A stretch of 39,523 nt of DNA from a bacterium (lineage in GTDB: Bacteria; JACRDZ01; JAQUKH01), in assembly GCA_043809805.1 (NCBI GenBank), contig JBDROR010000247.1, positions 1 to 39,523 of the forward strand, in the 5' to 3' direction. The notes beneath the pieces are model-generated. The model made no database searches and had not been told where the DNA came from. It saw only the letters and a list, made by a program, of their open reading frames with translations. The position numbers were made by a program, and so were the translations under genes. Of the stretch, positions 1 through 14,148 are shown piece by piece. Numbering within the stretch: position 1 is the first letter of the stretch; each line of letters starts with the position of its first letter.

Positions 1-298
1 CGCCTATGGTGTCCTTGCAAGTAGCAAGCAGTAAACCAAATTTATCATTTTTGTCAATCTTTAATGATTTACTTACTATGTCAAGATACCAACCCTCCGG
101 TAGTAAACCCTCGAAAAATGGAAATAGTTCATTGATTTCAAACGCTTCTTCTCTTACCGGCAAAGATATAGAAATGGGTATTCCGTTTTTAATAAAATCA
201 ATATCATAAACGAATTTATACCCATTCTCTGTTTCCTCCAATAGTCCGGCCAGTGTTTCCTTAAAATAAATTTTTGCTTTTCTTTTATTTTCTATCAT
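1..298 (-). CDS. hipA: HipA-family toxin kinase, N-terminal part only (runs off the left window edge)
   Basis: Absent from the ORF track because there is no stop in the window. Reverse-strand reading from ATG at 298 gives MIENKRKAKIYFKETLAGLLEETENGYKFVYDIDFIKNGIPISISLPVREEAFEINELFPFFEGLLPEGW. The FFEGLLPEGW motif is typical of the HipA N-terminal domain. The start overlaps the upstream HTH gene by 14 nt. Confidence 0.7.
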   Translation of the reverse strand, partial: MIENKRKAKIYFKETLAGLLEETENGYKFVYDIDFIKNGIPISISLPVREEAFEINELFPFFEGLLPEGWYLDIVSKSLKIDKNDKFGLLLATCKDTIG

Positions 299-485
299 TC
301 TTTACCGCCTCCAAATGATACCCGAAATATTCCAATAGTTGATGAACCTTATCCATTCTTACTGTTTTTTTCCCCTGTTCAAGATCTCTTATAAATCTTA
401 ATCCAACTCCCACCCTTTTGGCAAAATCTACCTGTGTCAATCCAGCTTTTTTCCGCAACTCTTTTATTTTTAATCCCATATTCAT
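285..485 (-). CDS. XRE-family helix-turn-helix antitoxin (HipB / Y4mF-like)
   Basis: 66 aa. IKELRKKAGLTQVDFAKRVGVGLRFIRDLEQGKK is a classic XRE HTH. It lies immediately upstream of, and overlaps, the HipA-like ORF. Confidence 0.8.
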   Translation of the reverse strand: MNMGLKIKELRKKAGLTQVDFAKRVGVGLRFIRDLEQGKKTVRMDKVHQLLEYFGYHLEAVKNDRK

Positions 486-487
486 AT

Positions 488-609
488 TATACCCTTTAGG
501 TTATATTTTGTCTTAAGATTATACCTTTTCAGGTATAATGTCAAGATAATTTATTACTTTTAATCTATGGAAAACAAATAATGCCACTTTCTATACCTGT
601 TAGGGTATA
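488..609. promoter_or_regulatory. Three operator-like palindromes TATACC-N6-GGTATA upstream of the hipBA-like operon
   Basis: 488-505 is tataccctttaggttata (one mismatch). 520-537 is tataccttttcaggtata (perfect). 592-609 is tatacctgttagggtata (perfect). On the minus strand two half-sites contain TATAAT (486-491 and 518-523). Confidence 0.45.
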
Positions 610-658
610 ATATCAGCATCCTCAAGCCAAAAAGGATTATAGATACAACGGTAAATAA

Positions 659-766
659 AGAAAAGCCCCGCAAGAAGCCGGGTTAAGACAATTCGAAGTT
701 GCTCATAAATTAAACAAACCGCAATCTTATATTTCAAAAATTGAGAGAGGTGAAAATAGGCATTAA
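659..766 (+). pseudogene. Fragment of an XRE-family HTH gene (C-terminal part of the HTH, no start codon)
   Basis: The frame reads RKAPQEAGLRQFEVAHKLNKPQSYISKIERGENRH*. An in-frame TAA at 656-658 lies directly upstream, so only about 35 codons remain. Confidence 0.45.
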
Positions 767-768
767 TA

Positions 769-1620
769 TCAAACTCCTACCTGCCCTGCTACTTTTTCCC
801 AATCTCCTCCGGAATTGGCTATTTTTATAATTTTTCCTATTTTTACAATATCTTTCGAAAGAGCAGAAAAATCTGATTTAGTGTCTTCAATAATACCTAA
901 CAAAATCAAATCTCTTTTTATTACTTTATTGAATCCAATGTAATTTTGTAAATCTTCTTCAAATATTGGAATTATTATATGAAATAAACAGCTTAAAGTA
1001 AGTATTATATTATTTATTGCCATTTTTAAAGAATCTTCATTTAAACTATAGATTAATGTAATTTTTTCTTTTGCCTTCTTCTCCCATATTTTTTTAAGTT
1101 TTTCCATGTTTCTAAAATTTTTTGAATGACTCATTAAACACATAATTTTATAAATAAATTCCCAATCTATATTAAGATGATCTTTACAAAAAGATGTAAC
1201 ATTAAACTGTATTTTCCCTTTTCTATCAACAAATATAGCTTCCCATTCCTTTGGATAACAAGATAGGAATATTATTCTAAAAAATGTTTCATACGCACTC
1301 CTACATAACATTATCGACTCATCATAATATCCGTTAATCAAAATTTCAAAAGAACAATGCAAAGTTTTTAATGCTTCGGGATACAAAAGATTTTGAAATT
1401 TTTTATGATTTTCCCACTTATCGCTGGGGACATAATTCAAATAATCTATAACCAATGTCAACTCTTGAAAAGAATCTTCAAAATCTTTAACAAACGGACC
1501 ATAACTGTTTAGAACAATATTCTTGTGTTTTTTAATATATTCATAAATACCCAAAGTTATTTTTGAGGGCTCATTGCTTCTGCTTTCATCTATAAGTAAT
1601 TTTAATTTTTCTTTGTCCAT
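769..1620 (-). CDS. Hypothetical protein, third gene of the AbiL-like unit; no domain recognised with confidence
   Basis: 283-aa ORF whose start overlaps the RloB-like gene by 19 nt. The motif INGYYDESIMLCRSAYETFF faintly recalls DUF5677/AbiV-type helical proteins. Confidence 0.6.
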   Translation of the reverse strand: MDKEKLKLLIDESRSNEPSKITLGIYEYIKKHKNIVLNSYGPFVKDFEDSFQELTLVIDYLNYVPSDKWENHKKFQNLLYPEALKTLHCSFEILINGYYDESIMLCRSAYETFFRIIFLSCYPKEWEAIFVDRKGKIQFNVTSFCKDHLNIDWEFIYKIMCLMSHSKNFRNMEKLKKIWEKKAKEKITLIYSLNEDSLKMAINNIILTLSCLFHIIIPIFEEDLQNYIGFNKVIKRDLILLGIIEDTKSDFSALSKDIVKIGKIIKIANSGGDWEKVAGQVGV

Positions 1621-2144
1621 AAGAAATATCCCCGCATCCCTTTCAAAATCTCTTCCAACTCCGGAATATTTTTTCGCCGCGCTTCAAACATTTCACGAGA
1701 AAATATTGCAGGGTAAGCGCGTTTATCCATTTTTTTATCACCCGAAAGATAATTTCGTTCAAATTCTTTCTTGCACATAACAGAGTAAGCTGTAACCTGT
1801 GAAAAATTAGGATACTGAAGAATCGCTAAAAATAATCCTTCAATATTTGGTGTTGCTTTCAGTATCCTGATTTTTTTTGTGTGCTTATTTATCTTACAAT
1901 CATTTTCCGATAACCTATCCGCGTCGATAAGCACAAAACATTTATCATAAGCCCTGCTCCCGCATAAACGTTTTGCTTTCTGAACAACACATTTGGGCGA
2001 ACCACCAGATCCACATTCAATTTTTACTACAATGTCATCGTCCCGTGTAACATACAGTTCTTTTAAATACTGCAGAAATGCTTTTTCTGTAGGGCCTTCT
2101 CCGACTATTAAAATTGCTGTTTTGGTACGTCTGGCCGGTTTCAT
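1602..2144 (-). CDS. RloB-like (Toprim-like) protein, AbiLii-like
   Basis: 180 aa. N-terminal TAILIVGEGPTEKAFLQYL and later CFVLIDADR fit the RloB pattern of a conserved Glu plus a DxD. There is an ATGA overlap with the upstream ATPase gene. Confidence 0.65.
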   Translation of the reverse strand: MKPARRTKTAILIVGEGPTEKAFLQYLKELYVTRDDDIVVKIECGSGGSPKCVVQKAKRLCGSRAYDKCFVLIDADRLSENDCKINKHTKKIRILKATPNIEGLFLAILQYPNFSQVTAYSVMCKKEFERNYLSGDKKMDKRAYPAIFSREMFEARRKNIPELEEILKGMRGYFLWTKKN

Positions 2145-3358
2145 ATATTTGGAACCGCTCCATATTTACCTGCCAGATATTTCGCGTAAATGTTATCATC
2201 TCTTCGCACACCTTTTAATTCATCAAGCCGATAAAGCTCGCTTTTACAATCTTTCTTTTTCTCAACAAGTATAATTTGCTCTTTTTCAAGATGATTAAGC
2301 ACTTCAAGCGAATGAGAAGTAAAAATAAGCTGGCTGTTTTTTGGATTCTTAACCGGGTTTACAAACAATTCGATTATATGCGGTATCGTATGCGGATGAA
2401 GGTCAATTTCAAGTTCATCTATAACAGCTATTCCTCCATGTTCAATCGCAGGAAAAAGAAAGTGAAGAAGTACAAACATATTTTTTGTACCGCTTGATTC
2501 ATAATTAAAAGGAAGTTTATACAACTTTTCATTTACCTTATGAACTCCATATGGTAAATTAACTTTCTTTTTATCTCCAGTTTTGGAATTATGGACTTCA
2601 CCTTCTTCGATTAAAACCCCATCGAATCCAAAGTCAATATCCTTTAAAAATTGAATAACTTTAGCAAAAATATTTTTATTTTTAACATATGATTCTGTTG
2701 CTTCTAAAATCCTTTTTTCTCCGAGAGAAGATATATCCCATGCTTTTCCCGCTCGATTAACATTGCTTATAATATTTTGCCAAAAAACAACAATGTCTGT
2801 TAAGACACTATTTTTGATGGCTACTCCCACTGAAACTAAGGATACATTTTTTCGTAATATTTTTTTTACCACCTCTGTTTCTAAACTAATATCTTGAACA
2901 ATGTCGTAACTTTCAGTTTTAGCATCCCAATTTCGTTTGAATAAATAGTTGAAATGCTGTGTTTCTTTCTTCTGGTATAGTTCTTCTTTAACAACATGTG
3001 TCCTGCATAAATACAAAATATATTTATAAACTTTTTTATTATGGTCAAATATTATTTCAAACTCAGAAACACTGTTTTTCTCTTCAGAAAATTTAAAATG
3101 ATCTATCGGAATTTCCTCTTTCTCACCCTCCAAACCAAAAAAAGAATTTCGGACAAACCAGCTAACAAATGCCAATGCCTTAAGCGCGTTCGTCTTGCCG
3201 GATGCGTTTGGCCCGACAACAATCATCACTTTACTAAGCGATTCAGTGTCGAAAAACATATTGTTTTTTGTCTCAATTCCTTTTCGAATATCCTCAAATG
3301 AGATTGTTGCCTCATCCGCAAAAGAACAAAAATTCTTAAATTTAAATGAATAAATCAT
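2141..3358 (-). CDS. AAA_21/ABC-type ATPase, AbiLi-like
   Basis: 405 aa. Walker A is GPNASGKT, Walker B-like is IAVIDELEIDLHP, and FTSHS lies downstream. Confidence 0.85.
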   Translation of the reverse strand: MIYSFKFKNFCSFADEATISFEDIRKGIETKNNMFFDTESLSKVMIVVGPNASGKTNALKALAFVSWFVRNSFFGLEGEKEEIPIDHFKFSEEKNSVSEFEIIFDHNKKVYKYILYLCRTHVVKEELYQKKETQHFNYLFKRNWDAKTESYDIVQDISLETEVVKKILRKNVSLVSVGVAIKNSVLTDIVVFWQNIISNVNRAGKAWDISSLGEKRILEATESYVKNKNIFAKVIQFLKDIDFGFDGVLIEEGEVHNSKTGDKKKVNLPYGVHKVNEKLYKLPFNYESSGTKNMFVLLHFLFPAIEHGGIAVIDELEIDLHPHTIPHIIELFVNPVKNPKNSQLIFTSHSLEVLNHLEKEQIILVEKKKDCKSELYRLDELKGVRRDDNIYAKYLAGKYGAVPNI

Positions 3359-3529
3359 TTTTTACCCCTTTTTAACTTTGTATTTCGGCATAATAATAAC
3401 ATATTAACATTTTTTTGTCAATAATTATTTATTTTATAATCCATTTTGACTATAATATGCCTTTCCCCACAAATTCATAACAAAACCGACAAATAGATTA
3501 ATCGTTTTTAATTGAACAAATTTGATGTT

Positions 3530-3628
3530 TTAGAAACTCTTCCTAACAACATCCTTGATTTTCATTAGGCAGATTTGGTTGGAGAGTTCCAGCTCGGCGA
3601 GGCGCGCAACATAACCGAACGAAAAAAC
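3530..3628 (-). pseudogene. Relic 3' end of a V-type ATPase subunit D paralogue
   Basis: Reverse frame reads VFSFGYVARLAELELSNQICLMKIKDVVRKSF*, against the intact D subunit end IKYIVMRLAELELSNQIRLMKIKDIVRKH*. Positions 3548-3605 match 35667-35724 at 50 of 58 ungapped positions. An in-frame stop lies just upstream. Confidence 0.6.
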
Positions 3629-3669
3629 TCAGAGGCGGCATGCTCGCTGTCCTCTGTAATTTGGAATCT

Positions 3670-3787
3670 AATCTATAGTAATCGGTCAGTTATTGGTGGT
3701 AGGCGCAGGCTTTAGCCTGCGAACAACAACGCAAGCTAAAGCTTGCGGCTACCGTTTCCACTAATAACTGACCGATTACAATCTATA
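3670..3787. mobile_element. MITE-like palindromic element with target-site duplication
   Basis: 22-bp terminal inverted repeats at 3678-3699 (gtaatcggtcagttattggtgg) and 3758-3779 (ccactaataactgaccgattac), with one mismatch. Two internal hairpins: cgcaggc-ttta-gcctgcg and cgcaagc-taaa-gcttgcg. The 8-bp direct repeat AATCTATA abuts both ends (3670-3677 and 3780-3787). Confidence 0.55.
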
Positions 3788-3798
3788 TTTGTTTGCAA

Positions 3799-3827
3799 TT
3801 GACATAAATTTATAATTATGGGATAAT
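3799..3827 (+). promoter_or_regulatory. Sigma70-like promoter: TTGACA, 17-nt spacer, GATAAT
   Basis: TTGACA at 3799-3804 and GATAAT at 3822-3827, only 7 nt before the GTG start at 3835. Confidence 0.35.
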
Positions 3828-3834
3828 TTCGATT

Positions 3835-4380
3835 GTGAAACGTAAAGACTATTTCATCAAAAAGGCATTTCAGTTAAAATTTGTCAGTATCTTTTTAGCT
3901 TTAATTGTCTCGGGAAGTGTAATTCTCGGGTGGGTGGTTTACGAAATGGCAAATCAAACTCTTTCACGCAGTTTTTACGAGTCGCATATTCAGATCAAGT
4001 CTACATGGGAGATTATTTTTCCCGCGGTAGTGGCGGCTACTTTACTTTCCATTTTTACAACAGGCGCTATTTGTGTAATAGTAGTTCTTGTCTTTTCTCA
4101 CAGAATCGCAGGGCCGTTATATCGTTTTGAAAAAAATTTAGAAGAAATCGCCAGAGGCAATTTTACTATAAATACCAGACTGCGAAAAACAGATGAATTT
4201 GAACTATTGGCCGATAAATTAAATCTTTTAACCCAGGAATTAAATAGACGAATAAAGGATATTAAAACAGGATTTGAAAAACTTTCGGAATGTCTTCATC
4301 CAGAAGATTCTTCAAAAAATAAAGAAATCAAAGATAACATGGAGCGGCTTAATAAGCTTTTTAGTCAATTTAGACTATAA
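3835..4380 (+). CDS. Membrane protein with two TM helices and a HAMP domain, no output domain
   Basis: 181 aa. TM segments are FVSIFLALIVSGSVILGWVVY and IIFPAVVAATLLSIFTTGAICVIVVLVF. They are followed by the HAMP-like HRIAGPLYRFEKNLEEIARGNFT...DEFELLADKLNLL. Confidence 0.7.
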   Translation: MKRKDYFIKKAFQLKFVSIFLALIVSGSVILGWVVYEMANQTLSRSFYESHIQIKSTWEIIFPAVVAATLLSIFTTGAICVIVVLVFSHRIAGPLYRFEKNLEEIARGNFTINTRLRKTDEFELLADKLNLLTQELNRRIKDIKTGFEKLSECLHPEDSSKNKEIKDNMERLNKLFSQFRL

Positions 4381-6394: not shown

Positions 6395-7498
6395 TTGAAA
6401 AAAAGCGTTTTTATCTCCTCAACATTTGATGATCTAAAAGAGATTAGAAAAAAAGTTTGGCAATTATTAAAAGAACACGATGTGATAATTAAGGGAATGG
6501 AGGATTTTGGGGCAAGAAAAGCAAAACCATTAGAAACATGCCTTAATGAAGTATCTCAATCTGACATTTATATTGGGATAATCGCTTTCCGATTGGGAAC
6601 AATTGATGAAAAAACAGGTAAGTCAATTACCCAACTTGAATACGAAAAAGCCTTGGAATTGGGTAAAGAGATATTAATATATTTTATGGACGATAAATTA
6701 TCTTCTATTGCTCCTATTTATGTAGATAAAGGCTCAGATGCGGATGCACTTAAAATATTTAAAGAAACATTAAAAGAAAATCATACAGTTGACTTTTTTA
6801 TCAACCCAGATGATTTATCTAATAAATTATCTAATAGATTTTCCATATTACTTACCAAATTGAATCCAGAACCAATTCAAGAAAAAGATAAATCAAAAGG
6901 CATACTGCAGAAATTTATTGTGATGCCAAAAATTCTTAGTGGTTTTGAAATTGAATGCAAGCTAAAAATTAACAGTAGCCCATTTCCTTTATCAAACGAG
7001 ATATGTAGAAATTTTAACTTCCAATTTGGAGAGACGGCTGGATTTGGAATAGAGTTCATAGATCCAAAGATAAAAGAAAATCCAATTGACCTACTTGTTG
7101 TTGAAAAATATTTGTTTGATGATTTTATTAAGAATAGTAAGTCAGAAGATGAGTTTAGTGTAGAGCTTTTATTTTCGAAAAATAGTGCAGAAAAAATATC
7201 CACATTTTTTAATAAGAAAAGACTTAGTATTGAAATCGAGAATCCGAAATACGATCCATCTATTCCAGAATCTGATTCAAATATATTATCTTCAACAACA
7301 TCTGTTTTTACCTTGGGAAATTTATTTGGAATGAAGTATAATCCAAAATATATTTATAAAACTATAGTTGAAAAAGGCGAAGGGCAAGTATTAGCAAGAT
7401 TAAAATCAATTAAAAATACCATAAATAAAGAATTAGAAACTGACAACAAAGCGCCAGACTGTGTGAAAACTCGGTTTTCCAAAAACAAGACCCAATAA
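6395..7498 (+). CDS. DUF4062-domain protein with an unknown C-terminal region of about 250 aa
   Basis: TTG start preceded by AGGAG. N-terminus VFISSTFDDLKEIRKKV...CLNEVSQSDIYIGIIAFRLG...SITQLEYEKALELGKEILIYF matches the DUF4062 pattern. Confidence 0.7.
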   Translation: MKKSVFISSTFDDLKEIRKKVWQLLKEHDVIIKGMEDFGARKAKPLETCLNEVSQSDIYIGIIAFRLGTIDEKTGKSITQLEYEKALELGKEILIYFMDDKLSSIAPIYVDKGSDADALKIFKETLKENHTVDFFINPDDLSNKLSNRFSILLTKLNPEPIQEKDKSKGILQKFIVMPKILSGFEIECKLKINSSPFPLSNEICRNFNFQFGETAGFGIEFIDPKIKENPIDLLVVEKYLFDDFIKNSKSEDEFSVELLFSKNSAEKISTFFNKKRLSIEIENPKYDPSIPESDSNILSSTTSVFTLGNLFGMKYNPKYIYKTIVEKGEGQVLARLKSIKNTINKELETDNKAPDCVKTRFSKNKTQ

Positions 7499-7557
7499 AA
7501 TCAAGGGTTTACAAGTTAAGAAATCCCAAAAAATGGGGTTTTCACACAGTCTGGCGC
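7451..7557. repeat. Perfect 20-bp inverted repeat with a 67-nt spacer
   Basis: gcgccagactgtgtgaaaac at 7451-7470 and gttttcacacagtctggcgc at 7538-7557. The left arm encodes the last residues of the DUF4062 protein. Confidence 0.85.
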
Positions 7558-7649
7558 TTCAAGCGACGCCTAACGGCGCGCCTGAGCTAAGACGTTGCAA
7601 GAGAAAAAATAGGAAATTAAGATTAAAGAAAAATAAAGAGGATAAGTTG

Positions 7650-8399
7650 ATGATAAATGATGAAATTACATTATTTAATGAATCGATAACTGAATGGTCA
7701 GAGAAATGGTGGTGGGGATATTGTTTTGATGAAAATGGAATAACAAGTGACTTTAAAAAAGATATGGAATTATATTTTCCATTTTTTCTTGAACATGATC
7801 CCAAAATATTAATTCATGAGAATTTAGTTGATTTTTCTTCGACAACCTACAACCATAAAATTGAAAATATTGAGAAGTTCCGTGAAAATATTATAAAATG
7901 GAAATACGGCTCTCAATATTATGAAATAAACTATAAAAATTCACTAAAAATAAAAAATGGAAATAGTATTGATTGTGTTTTTAACCATAGTTCTTTAGTT
8001 AGTCGAATTTTTTGGAAACATATCTATAATCCTTTAAGTTACCCAATTTTTGACCAAAGGACACTACGAACGTTTGCTCTCCTTTTTAATAAATCAAATG
8101 AATTTATACCTCTAAATCATTTGTGGATAGGTGGCGTTCCTACGGGAACAAATATTGAAAAGTATTACGATTCATGTTTCAAAAAAATTATAATCAATTC
8201 CATTAAAGAAATTACAAATGATATAGAAAAATTTTTATTATTAAGAAAAATTGATTATGCCTTGTTTGCATTCGATAAATTTATAATTTCAAAATCAATT
8301 AATAAAACAATACCCATATTTAAAAAAATCGTTGAAATATGTGATGAAAAAATACAAAATTTTACTTTCAGCAAATGTAATTTTAAAACATCGGACTAA
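7650..8399 (+). CDS. Hypothetical protein (249 aa), no recognisable domain
   Basis: The ORF track opens at 7533, but that part is translated from the inverted repeat and a GC-rich patch. ATG 7650 is preceded by AAGAGGA about 7 nt upstream. Confidence 0.55.
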   Translation: MINDEITLFNESITEWSEKWWWGYCFDENGITSDFKKDMELYFPFFLEHDPKILIHENLVDFSSTTYNHKIENIEKFRENIIKWKYGSQYYEINYKNSLKIKNGNSIDCVFNHSSLVSRIFWKHIYNPLSYPIFDQRTLRTFALLFNKSNEFIPLNHLWIGGVPTGTNIEKYYDSCFKKIIINSIKEITNDIEKFLLLRKIDYALFAFDKFIISKSINKTIPIFKKIVEICDEKIQNFTFSKCNFKTSD

Positions 8400-8662
8400 C
8401 AAATCATTGCAAATAAAATTAATAGTTTATCTTGGATAATAATTGCTAAATTCAATTTAGAAAAGTAGAAGGTAAATTTAATAAAAAAATTGGCACCTCT
8501 GTTTCCCAAAACTAAATCTCGGTATAATTCAATTAATTTGTGATATAATCAGCTTTACAAATAAAAAATAAAAGAAATTAAAAAAAGGAAAAATGAATGG
8601 CTGGATTATTGATCATAAAATCATCAAATAAATATGTTATACTTTAAGAAGGAAAAAATAAT

Positions 8663-8932
8663 ATGCCAGTTATAAGTATGTTTTATGGAATTATAATATC
8701 AATGTTTTATATTGATAATAGACGCCATAAAAAACCACACATTCATGTGCAATATCAAGGCGAAGAAGCAGTTATTTCTATACCCGACGGGAAAGTGCTT
8801 GAAGGTTCTATTAAAGCGTCAAAACTAAAACTTGTGCAGGCATGGATAGAAATACATAAGGAAGATCTTACGGCTGATTGGGAACTGGCGAAAAAAGGGC
8901 AAAATGTTTTCACAATCGAACCACTGAGGTGA
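8663..8932 (+). CDS. DUF4160-domain protein
   Basis: MPVISMFYGIIISMFYIDNRRHKKPHIHVQYQGEEAVISI is the characteristic DUF4160 N-terminus. Confidence 0.75.
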   Translation: MPVISMFYGIIISMFYIDNRRHKKPHIHVQYQGEEAVISIPDGKVLEGSIKASKLKLVQAWIEIHKEDLTADWELAKKGQNVFTIEPLR

Positions 8933-14072: not shown

Positions 14073-14148
14073 TGGAGGCGGCAATCGGACTTGAACCGAT
14101 GAATAGCGGTTTTGCAGACCGCCGCCTTAGCCACTTGGCTATGCCGCC
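14073..14148 (-). tRNA. tRNA-Cys(GCA): tRNA-Cys (anticodon GCA) with encoded CCA
   Basis: Reverse strand is GGCGGCATAGCCAAGTGGCTAAGGCGGCGGTCTGCAAAACCGCTATTCATCGGTTCAAGTCCGATTGCCGCCTCCA. It has a 7-bp acceptor stem, anticodon loop CTGCAAA, T-arm ATCGG-TTCAAGT-CCGAT and discriminator U73, as expected for Cys. Confidence 0.9.

Follow-up and report, generated by a model that had tools for sequence, protein, structure and literature searches.

The window analysed in this work is the whole 39,523 nucleotide (nt) stretch of contig JBDROR010000247.1 (GenBank assembly GCA_043809805.1), and the element in question is a group of three minus-strand genes near its start, two of which resemble the abortive-infection system AbiL. 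The open reading frame (ORF) list and the sequence agree on ORF1 (3358-2141, 405 amino acids), ORF2 (2144-1602, 180 amino acids) and ORF3 (1620-769, 283 amino acids). ORF1 and ORF2 overlap by the four letters ATGA at 2141-2144, and ORF2 and ORF3 by 19 nt at 1602-1620 (ATGGACAAAGAAAAATTAA). As all three have strong homologues, they are real genes and not chance reading frames. A first-pass annotation, made from the letters alone, had described these overlaps together with the ATPase and RloB motifs given below, all of which are present where it placed them, and had proposed that ORF3 might turn a two-gene AbiL system into a three-gene variant.

ORF1 (AbiLi, 2141-3358, minus strand) encodes an ABC/SMC-type AAA_21 ATPase with the Walker A motif GPNASGKT at residues 49-56 (3191-3214), the Walker B-like sequence VIDELEIDLHP at residues 312-322 (2393-2425), an SSGT signature and an FTSHS H-loop. 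In Pfam it matches AAA_21 with 112.6 bits (cut-off 27) and AAA_15 with 55.4 bits. The PADLOC model for AbiLi is the best by far (4.8e-77), followed by the weaker AriA (2.2e-36), HEC-01A, PtuA and mad3 models. The protein is 70-76% identical to the ATPases adjoining RloB in six other loci.

ORF2 (AbiLii/RloB, 1602-2144, minus strand) encodes a Toprim-like protein which matches Pfam RloB (PF13707) with 40.8 bits, the gathering score being 31.5, and two PADLOC AbiLii models (3.4e-8 and 7.7e-7). The glutamate motif ILIVGEGPTEK is found at residues 11-21 (2082-2114) and the DxD motif LIDADR at residues 72-77 (1914-1931). E16, D74 and D76 are invariant across an alignment of 19 homologues, and judged from this alignment E16 and D74-x-D76 correspond to the acidic residues that a Toprim-like site should have. 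More than 120 homologues were found at 53-79% identity, typically of 176-180 amino acids and many of them from metagenome-assembled genomes (MAGs) of Omnitrophota; a profile search of the PDB sequences with RloB gave no match. In every related locus fetched which reaches that far upstream, an AAA_21 gene lies immediately upstream of RloB. Because of the PADLOC AbiLi and AbiLii matches, the AAA_21 domain, the above-threshold RloB match and the conserved glutamate and DxD residues, ORF1 and ORF2 are classified by sequence as the canonical two-gene AbiL pair, and the first-pass annotation was right in calling them so.

The relatives of the two genes do not rank in the same order. AbiLi is closest to the proteins of loci L029 and L011 (76%), its identity to those of L008 and L025 being no more than 70-73%, while RloB is closest to L008 and L025 (79% and 76%), a discordance which suggests recombination inside the AbiL operon.

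AbiL has been described as a two-component system in which a Rad50/SMC-like ATPase is paired with a TOPRIM/OLD-like protein; it works as a two-gene system in Lactococcus (PMC13064643) and has been grouped with PARIS (PMC11464382). The window pair shares with the PADLOC and DefenseFinder models of AbiL from Lactococcus lactis the order of an AAA_21/AAA_15 ATPase followed by an RloB-family Toprim-like protein in one operon. It differs in its host, an uncultured low-GC bacterium, in its relatives, which come mostly from Omnitrophota MAGs, in being known from sequence alone, and in having an unrelated gene joined to the 3' end of the operon. With PARIS (AriA/AriB), Gabija and MADS3-4 it has in common the logic of an ABC ATPase sensor and a Toprim nuclease, and the window ATPase also matches AriA; its partner, however, is RloB (PF13707), whereas AriB is of the DUF4435/Toprim-OLD type.

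ORF3 (769-1620, minus strand) encodes an all-helical protein whose small family is a distant relation of DUF5677. Its closest homologues are found down to 1e-119. A word-indexed search of 5.8 billion proteins recovered six relatives, a full hidden Markov model (HMM) scan of 1.84 billion cluster representatives recovered 172 clusters at E <= 1e-3, and a further protein search with a profile of 69 sequences recovered eight proteins. Among the 150 family representatives listed nearly all are single-domain proteins of about 260-310 amino acids, or shorter fragments; as the longest has 390 amino acids, no listed member is fused to an ATPase. R107 and H165 are the only residues invariant in 69 full-length members; each of H32, N62, W69, Q76, G97, E111, F139, L149, W153 and Y157 is retained by at least 90% of them. 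No relatives were found in the plasmid, phage and IMG/VR collections searched.

The sole Pfam match of ORF3 is to DUF5677 (PF18928), with 21.0 bits (E 3.7e-4) over residues 79-132, which is below the gathering score of 27.1. The same model is matched at E <= 0.01 by 44 of the 69 family members, the best at 5.4e-8, which places the family in the DUF5677 superfamily as one of its divergent branches; ORF3 itself is, by sequence similarity, a distant relative within this superfamily and not a formal member of DUF5677. Both have a common core in the helix carrying the invariant arginine (ES..L.RS....R), but the ORF3 family, with about 280 amino acids against the 166 positions of the model, has conserved N- and C-terminal helices of its own. 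Alignment of the family with one true DUF5677 protein by hhalign placed the arginine helices opposite each other with a probability of only 8.8%. In locus L020 (154-918 and 1044-1598) a true DUF5677 protein (44.8 bits, above the gathering score) is encoded about 130 nt upstream of the ORF3-family gene, and this tandem links DUF5677 and the ORF3 family by context besides their weak sequence similarity. A statistical enrichment of Pfam DUF5677 in recombinase-marked defence islands has been described (PMC12632615).

No model of PADLOC, NCBIfam or PHROGs matched ORF3, and PADLOC applied to the 69 family members gave just two weak PDC-S52 matches at 0.002. A profile search of the PDB sequences with ORF3 gave no match. 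The AlphaFold2 model built on the 69-sequence alignment is all-helical, with a mean predicted local distance difference test score (pLDDT) of 96.0 and a predicted template modelling score (pTM) of 0.91. Foldseek searches of the PDB with this model and with another of pLDDT 81.8 returned nothing at E <= 1e-3, the best E value of the pLDDT 96.0 model being 0.32, and the pLDDT 81.8 model had no significant match among the viral structures of BFVD. The matches that did appear are generic helical bundles and G protein-coupled receptors, with query-normalised template modelling (TM) scores of at most 0.30.

The junction between RloB and ORF3 coincides with the end of the conserved AbiL sequence. Comparison of the window with six AbiL loci by blastn gave 69-77% DNA identity, and the matches to L025, L008, L029 and L009 extend from about 3459-3361, the upper limit of about 3459 being reached in L008 and L025, down to 1636-1627 and then stop. 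The breakpoint at 1627-1635 falls at the canonical RloB stop position, 6-15 nt before the ATG of ORF3. In the window the codon at this stop position is TAT (1626-1628). RloB homologues lacking a tightly packed downstream gene end in ...ILKAMQV, to which the window protein aligns as ...ILKGMRG; the conserved body of the latter ends at 1629, and there follow eight non-conserved residues, YFLWTKKN (1605-1628), which these homologues do not have. Because of the TAT codon and the non-conserved tail at the breakpoint, the 19-nt overlap would be the by-product of a foreign gene joined at, or a few bases past, the RloB stop. The GC content falls from 37.0% in RloB to 26.2% in ORF3 (20% at third codon positions), with 32.2% in AbiLi and 37.8% in the window as a whole. 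Relatives of ORF3 are likewise lower in GC than their surroundings in all of eight loci.

A promoter-like site precedes the operon at 3421-3393 (minus strand; TTGACA-17-TATTAT with a TG extension), which is a consensus match only, at 11 of 12 positions, and the joint best in a scan of positions 1-4000. A GGGG ribosome-binding site lies 6 nt upstream of the AbiLi ATG, and a terminator-like hairpin with a T-run, again a match to consensus only, is found at 664-679 on the minus strand, 90 nt past the stop codon of ORF3. In the scan the stretch from RloB to ORF3 was free of sites resembling a promoter or a terminator, and a Shine-Dalgarno-like GGGGA is present 8 nt upstream of the ORF3 ATG. From these signals ORF3 is probably co-transcribed with AbiL from the AbiL promoter in this window, and its translational coupling, as the first-pass annotation had it, is plausible.

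Fourteen further loci carrying relatives of ORF3 were fetched (L001-L007 and L017-L024) after a locus search with a seven-sequence alignment, which recovered close relatives only. As L024 repeats the record of L019, L021 and L022 share one sequence, and L004 and L007 have no readable upstream DNA, 11 distinct informative loci remain. Neither AbiLi nor RloB is present in any of these 11, whether by precomputed Pfam tables, by tblastn or by HMMs derived from homologues of AbiLi and RloB; these purpose-built HMMs matched the window and none of the 15 ORF3 loci scanned, duplicates and uninformative contigs included. Conversely, the ORF3-family HMM had no match in 11 AbiL loci scanned, which represent seven distinct arrangements. 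The third gene of the window thus has its homologues apart from the ATPase and RloB pair in 11 of 11 loci, and the three-gene AbiL variant put forward in the first-pass annotation is not supported.

The neighbours of the ORF3 relatives are frequently defence or toxin-antitoxin genes. In L018 the relative overlaps the stop of hsdS by ATGA, at the end of a type I restriction-modification (R-M) operon hsdR-fic-hsdM-hsdS. In L019, from a Deltaproteobacteria MAG, a stand-alone relative is surrounded by NYN, HipA_C and Fic genes. Fic and AbiEii genes are near the relative in L022, a PIN gene in L002, and in L003 there is a weak HNH match of 20.6 bits, just under the Pfam cut-off of 21.4. The relative of L020 is the one in tandem with the DUF5677 paralogue, and in L005 and L022 ordinary neighbours are also found, namely Cupin_2, UPF0047 and TspO.

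Three independent loci have a Fic-domain protein of 353-356 amino acids encoded some 3 kb or less from the ORF3 relative (L018:2164-3225, between hsdR and hsdM; L019:7442-8500, minus strand; and L022:5615-6685), and this proximity could be a real association or just the crowding of defence islands. On the 38-kb contig of L001 the relative (7883-8756) has its N-terminal 53 residues in another frame, with tblastn segments at 7898-8056 and 8067-8747, the cause being either a frameshift in a pseudogene or a fault in the assembly.

The slot after RloB differs in its contents from one AbiL locus to another. In L008 and L025, which hold the closest RloB relatives, it is occupied by a tightly packed PycC-like gene of 312 amino acids; in L011 by genes for UPF0758_N and an SNF2/PLD helicase; in L026-L028 by a gene of 158 amino acids followed by hsdM-hsdS-hsdR; in L009 by a convergent gene; and in L029-L032 by housekeeping genes. 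The PycC-like genes of L008 (4506-5444) and L025 (1992-2753, cut by the contig end) are 83% identical, stand to RloB in an 8-nt overlap or a 3-nt gap, match PADLOC PycC models at 1.3e-9, contain the motif FDKFTGDGVLAFF, and have no match in Pfam. Both contigs end before any effector gene position could be read, and the simpler view of the PycC-like gene is that an adjacent Pycsar system begins with it.

The rlo genes, for restriction-linked ORFs, are embedded in type I R-M loci, which is the setting where RloB was named. They are comparable to the present case as accessory genes inserted in or appended to defence operons, as with the ORF3 relative after hsdS in L018 and the AbiL pair linked to hsdMSR in L026-L028; unlike them, the ORF3 family is not known to have been described as an rlo gene.

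Taken together, these comparisons make it probable that the AbiL pair is an ordinary two-gene module and that ORF3 is a separately mobile gene joined on to it, which probably acts alone. The two-gene module would extend over 3421-1629. With PARIS and the OLD family as a guide, AbiLi would be its sensor and scaffold, and RloB the nuclease effector that infection releases or activates. The ORF3 family would be a sporadic, low-GC family whose genes as a rule stand by themselves, often in the company of toxin-antitoxin and defence genes, and in this genome the gene would have been joined directly to the 3' end of RloB. As the canonical stop position is occupied by a sense codon, the RloB frame would run eight codons into the new DNA, giving the 19-nt overlap. 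ORF3 would be co-expressed from the AbiL promoter yet most likely acts on its own, possibly as a single-protein defence or toxin-like function with a putative pocket around R107 and H165 together with H32, N62, Q76 and E111. This stand-alone defence or toxin-like role is the weakest step; it is considered most likely because of the recurrent low GC, the sparse distribution and the defence and toxin-antitoxin neighbours.

Several points weigh against this interpretation. The mechanism of AbiL itself is taken by analogy. The defence role proposed for ORF3 is drawn from its context; no PADLOC model matches it, and in E. faecalis the one DUF5677 protein put to the test failed to protect against six phages (PMC12632615). 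The tight overlap and the GGGGA fit true coupling, and co-expression could have led to cooperation. The informative ORF3 loci number only 11, several of them short contigs, and the closest AbiL loci carry a different packed third gene, so that this subclade could use exchangeable partners.

An extension of the same reading, which we put forward tentatively and regard as rather doubtful, is that the ORF3 family is a single-protein defence or toxin module spreading via the 3' ends of defence operons, AbiL in the window and hsdS in L018, and borrowing their transcription and translation; a related option is that the AbiL subclade has an exchange slot after RloB for DUF5677-like or PycC-like partners. 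A true three-component AbiL, in which ORF3 would be an added sensor, effector or regulator working physically with AbiLi and AbiLii in a slot where the subclade exchanges its partners, is in our opinion distinctly unlikely. The operonic arrangement, the 19-nt overlap and the uninterrupted stretch between RloB and ORF3, with no internal promoter-like or terminator-like site, would suit it, as would the third gene packed against RloB in each of its two closest relatives; but the absence of AbiL from all 11 informative ORF3 loci and of ORF3 from all 11 AbiL loci scanned, the equivalent coupling of an ORF3 relative to the unrelated hsdS, the origin of the overlap in a non-conserved tail at the homology breakpoint, where the GC drops by 11 points, the function of AbiL with two genes in Lactococcus (PMC13064643) and the simpler Pycsar reading of the PycC-like gene all argue against it.

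Two further explanations concern the function of ORF3. It may be unrelated to defence, as a regulatory, housekeeping-accessory or mobile-element cargo gene which came to lie beside AbiL by chance, and to this we give a low, if appreciable, probability. It would agree with the lack of any PADLOC or PHROGs match, with the Cupin_2, UPF0047 and TspO genes adjoining some relatives and with the unprotective DUF5677 gene (PMC12632615). It is less easily reconciled with the patchy distribution of the family, a GC content consistently under that of the host locus, the repeated proximity of type I R-M, Fic, HipA, NYN, PIN and AbiEii genes, and the enrichment of DUF5677 in recombinase-marked defence islands (PMC12632615), and the failure to find relatives in the phage, plasmid and IMG/VR collections argues against simple phage or plasmid cargo. 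The other explanation, which is barely credible, is that ORF3 is a HEPN RNase toxin of the AbiV kind next to AbiL, perhaps paired with an RNA antitoxin. The all-helical structure of ORF3 with an invariant arginine and histidine, the link between DUF5677 and AbiV drawn in the first-pass annotation, and the appearance of the AbiV crystal structure (9bj7_N) at rank 48 of the Foldseek matches would speak for it, but this match is not significant (E 2.7, TM 0.22), none of the 69 family members has a listed HEPN or AbiV match at E <= 0.01 in Pfam or PADLOC, both of which are assumed to hold an AbiV model, and R107 and H165 are 58 residues apart and do not form an Rx4-6H motif. Neither the RloB-ORF3 region nor the downstream spacer contains a tandem repeat array of the type III antitoxin type, the sole array found being a weak one of 28 nt (819-846) inside the ORF3 coding sequence, and no Rfam family was found around ORF3. 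The assignment to AbiV/HEPN was rejected for want of a model match, an Rx4-6H motif and a significant structural match; the DUF5677 half of that earlier hint holds at the superfamily level.

The case of ORF3 is mainly a caution: genes of a defence island do not form a system just because they overlap tightly and run the same way, and comparative context can tell a component from a joined-on neighbour. AbiL was already known; the by-product of this analysis is a defined, previously uncharacterised family found beside R-M, Fic, HipA, PIN, NYN, AbiEii and AbiL genes. Its members would be sensible and inexpensive choices to screen for phage defence or toxicity, and the family would give DUF5677 its first functional handle.

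The surroundings of the operon were broadly well described as a defence island. An HTH_3 gene is found at 285-485 on the minus strand (47.8 bits) and is followed by a fragment of 99 amino acids cut by the window edge (region 2-485, minus strand), whose best matches are HipS proteins of the tripartite HipBST systems: Legionella HipS (7vkb_B) at 1.6e-17 and E. coli HipS (7ab3_B) at 1.2e-11, against 3e-4 for full HipA. The neighbouring module, labelled hipBA in the earlier annotation, may thus be hipBST by sequence. Mobile-element scars had also been reported beside the operon; none is recognisable in 486-768 and they were rejected. The spacer holds instead three TATACC-N6-GGTATA palindromes (488-505, 520-537 and 592-609) around a promoter-like TTGACA...TATAAT, which, lying upstream of the HTH_3 gene, look like operators.

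On the plus strand at 6395-8399, between hisC and an acetyl-CoA synthetase gene, there is a gene for a DUF4062 protein (367 amino acids, 87 bits) followed after 35 nt by one for a protein of 288 amino acids, which has no match in Pfam or PADLOC. Their GC contents, 29% and 27%, are low beside the 38% of the window, and the pair may be a second small acquired module. At 14076-14148 on the minus strand, where a gene for a multihaem cytochrome of 1392 amino acids has its downstream edge, there is a tRNA gene (Rfam, 66.9 bits); no other Rfam family was found in the window.

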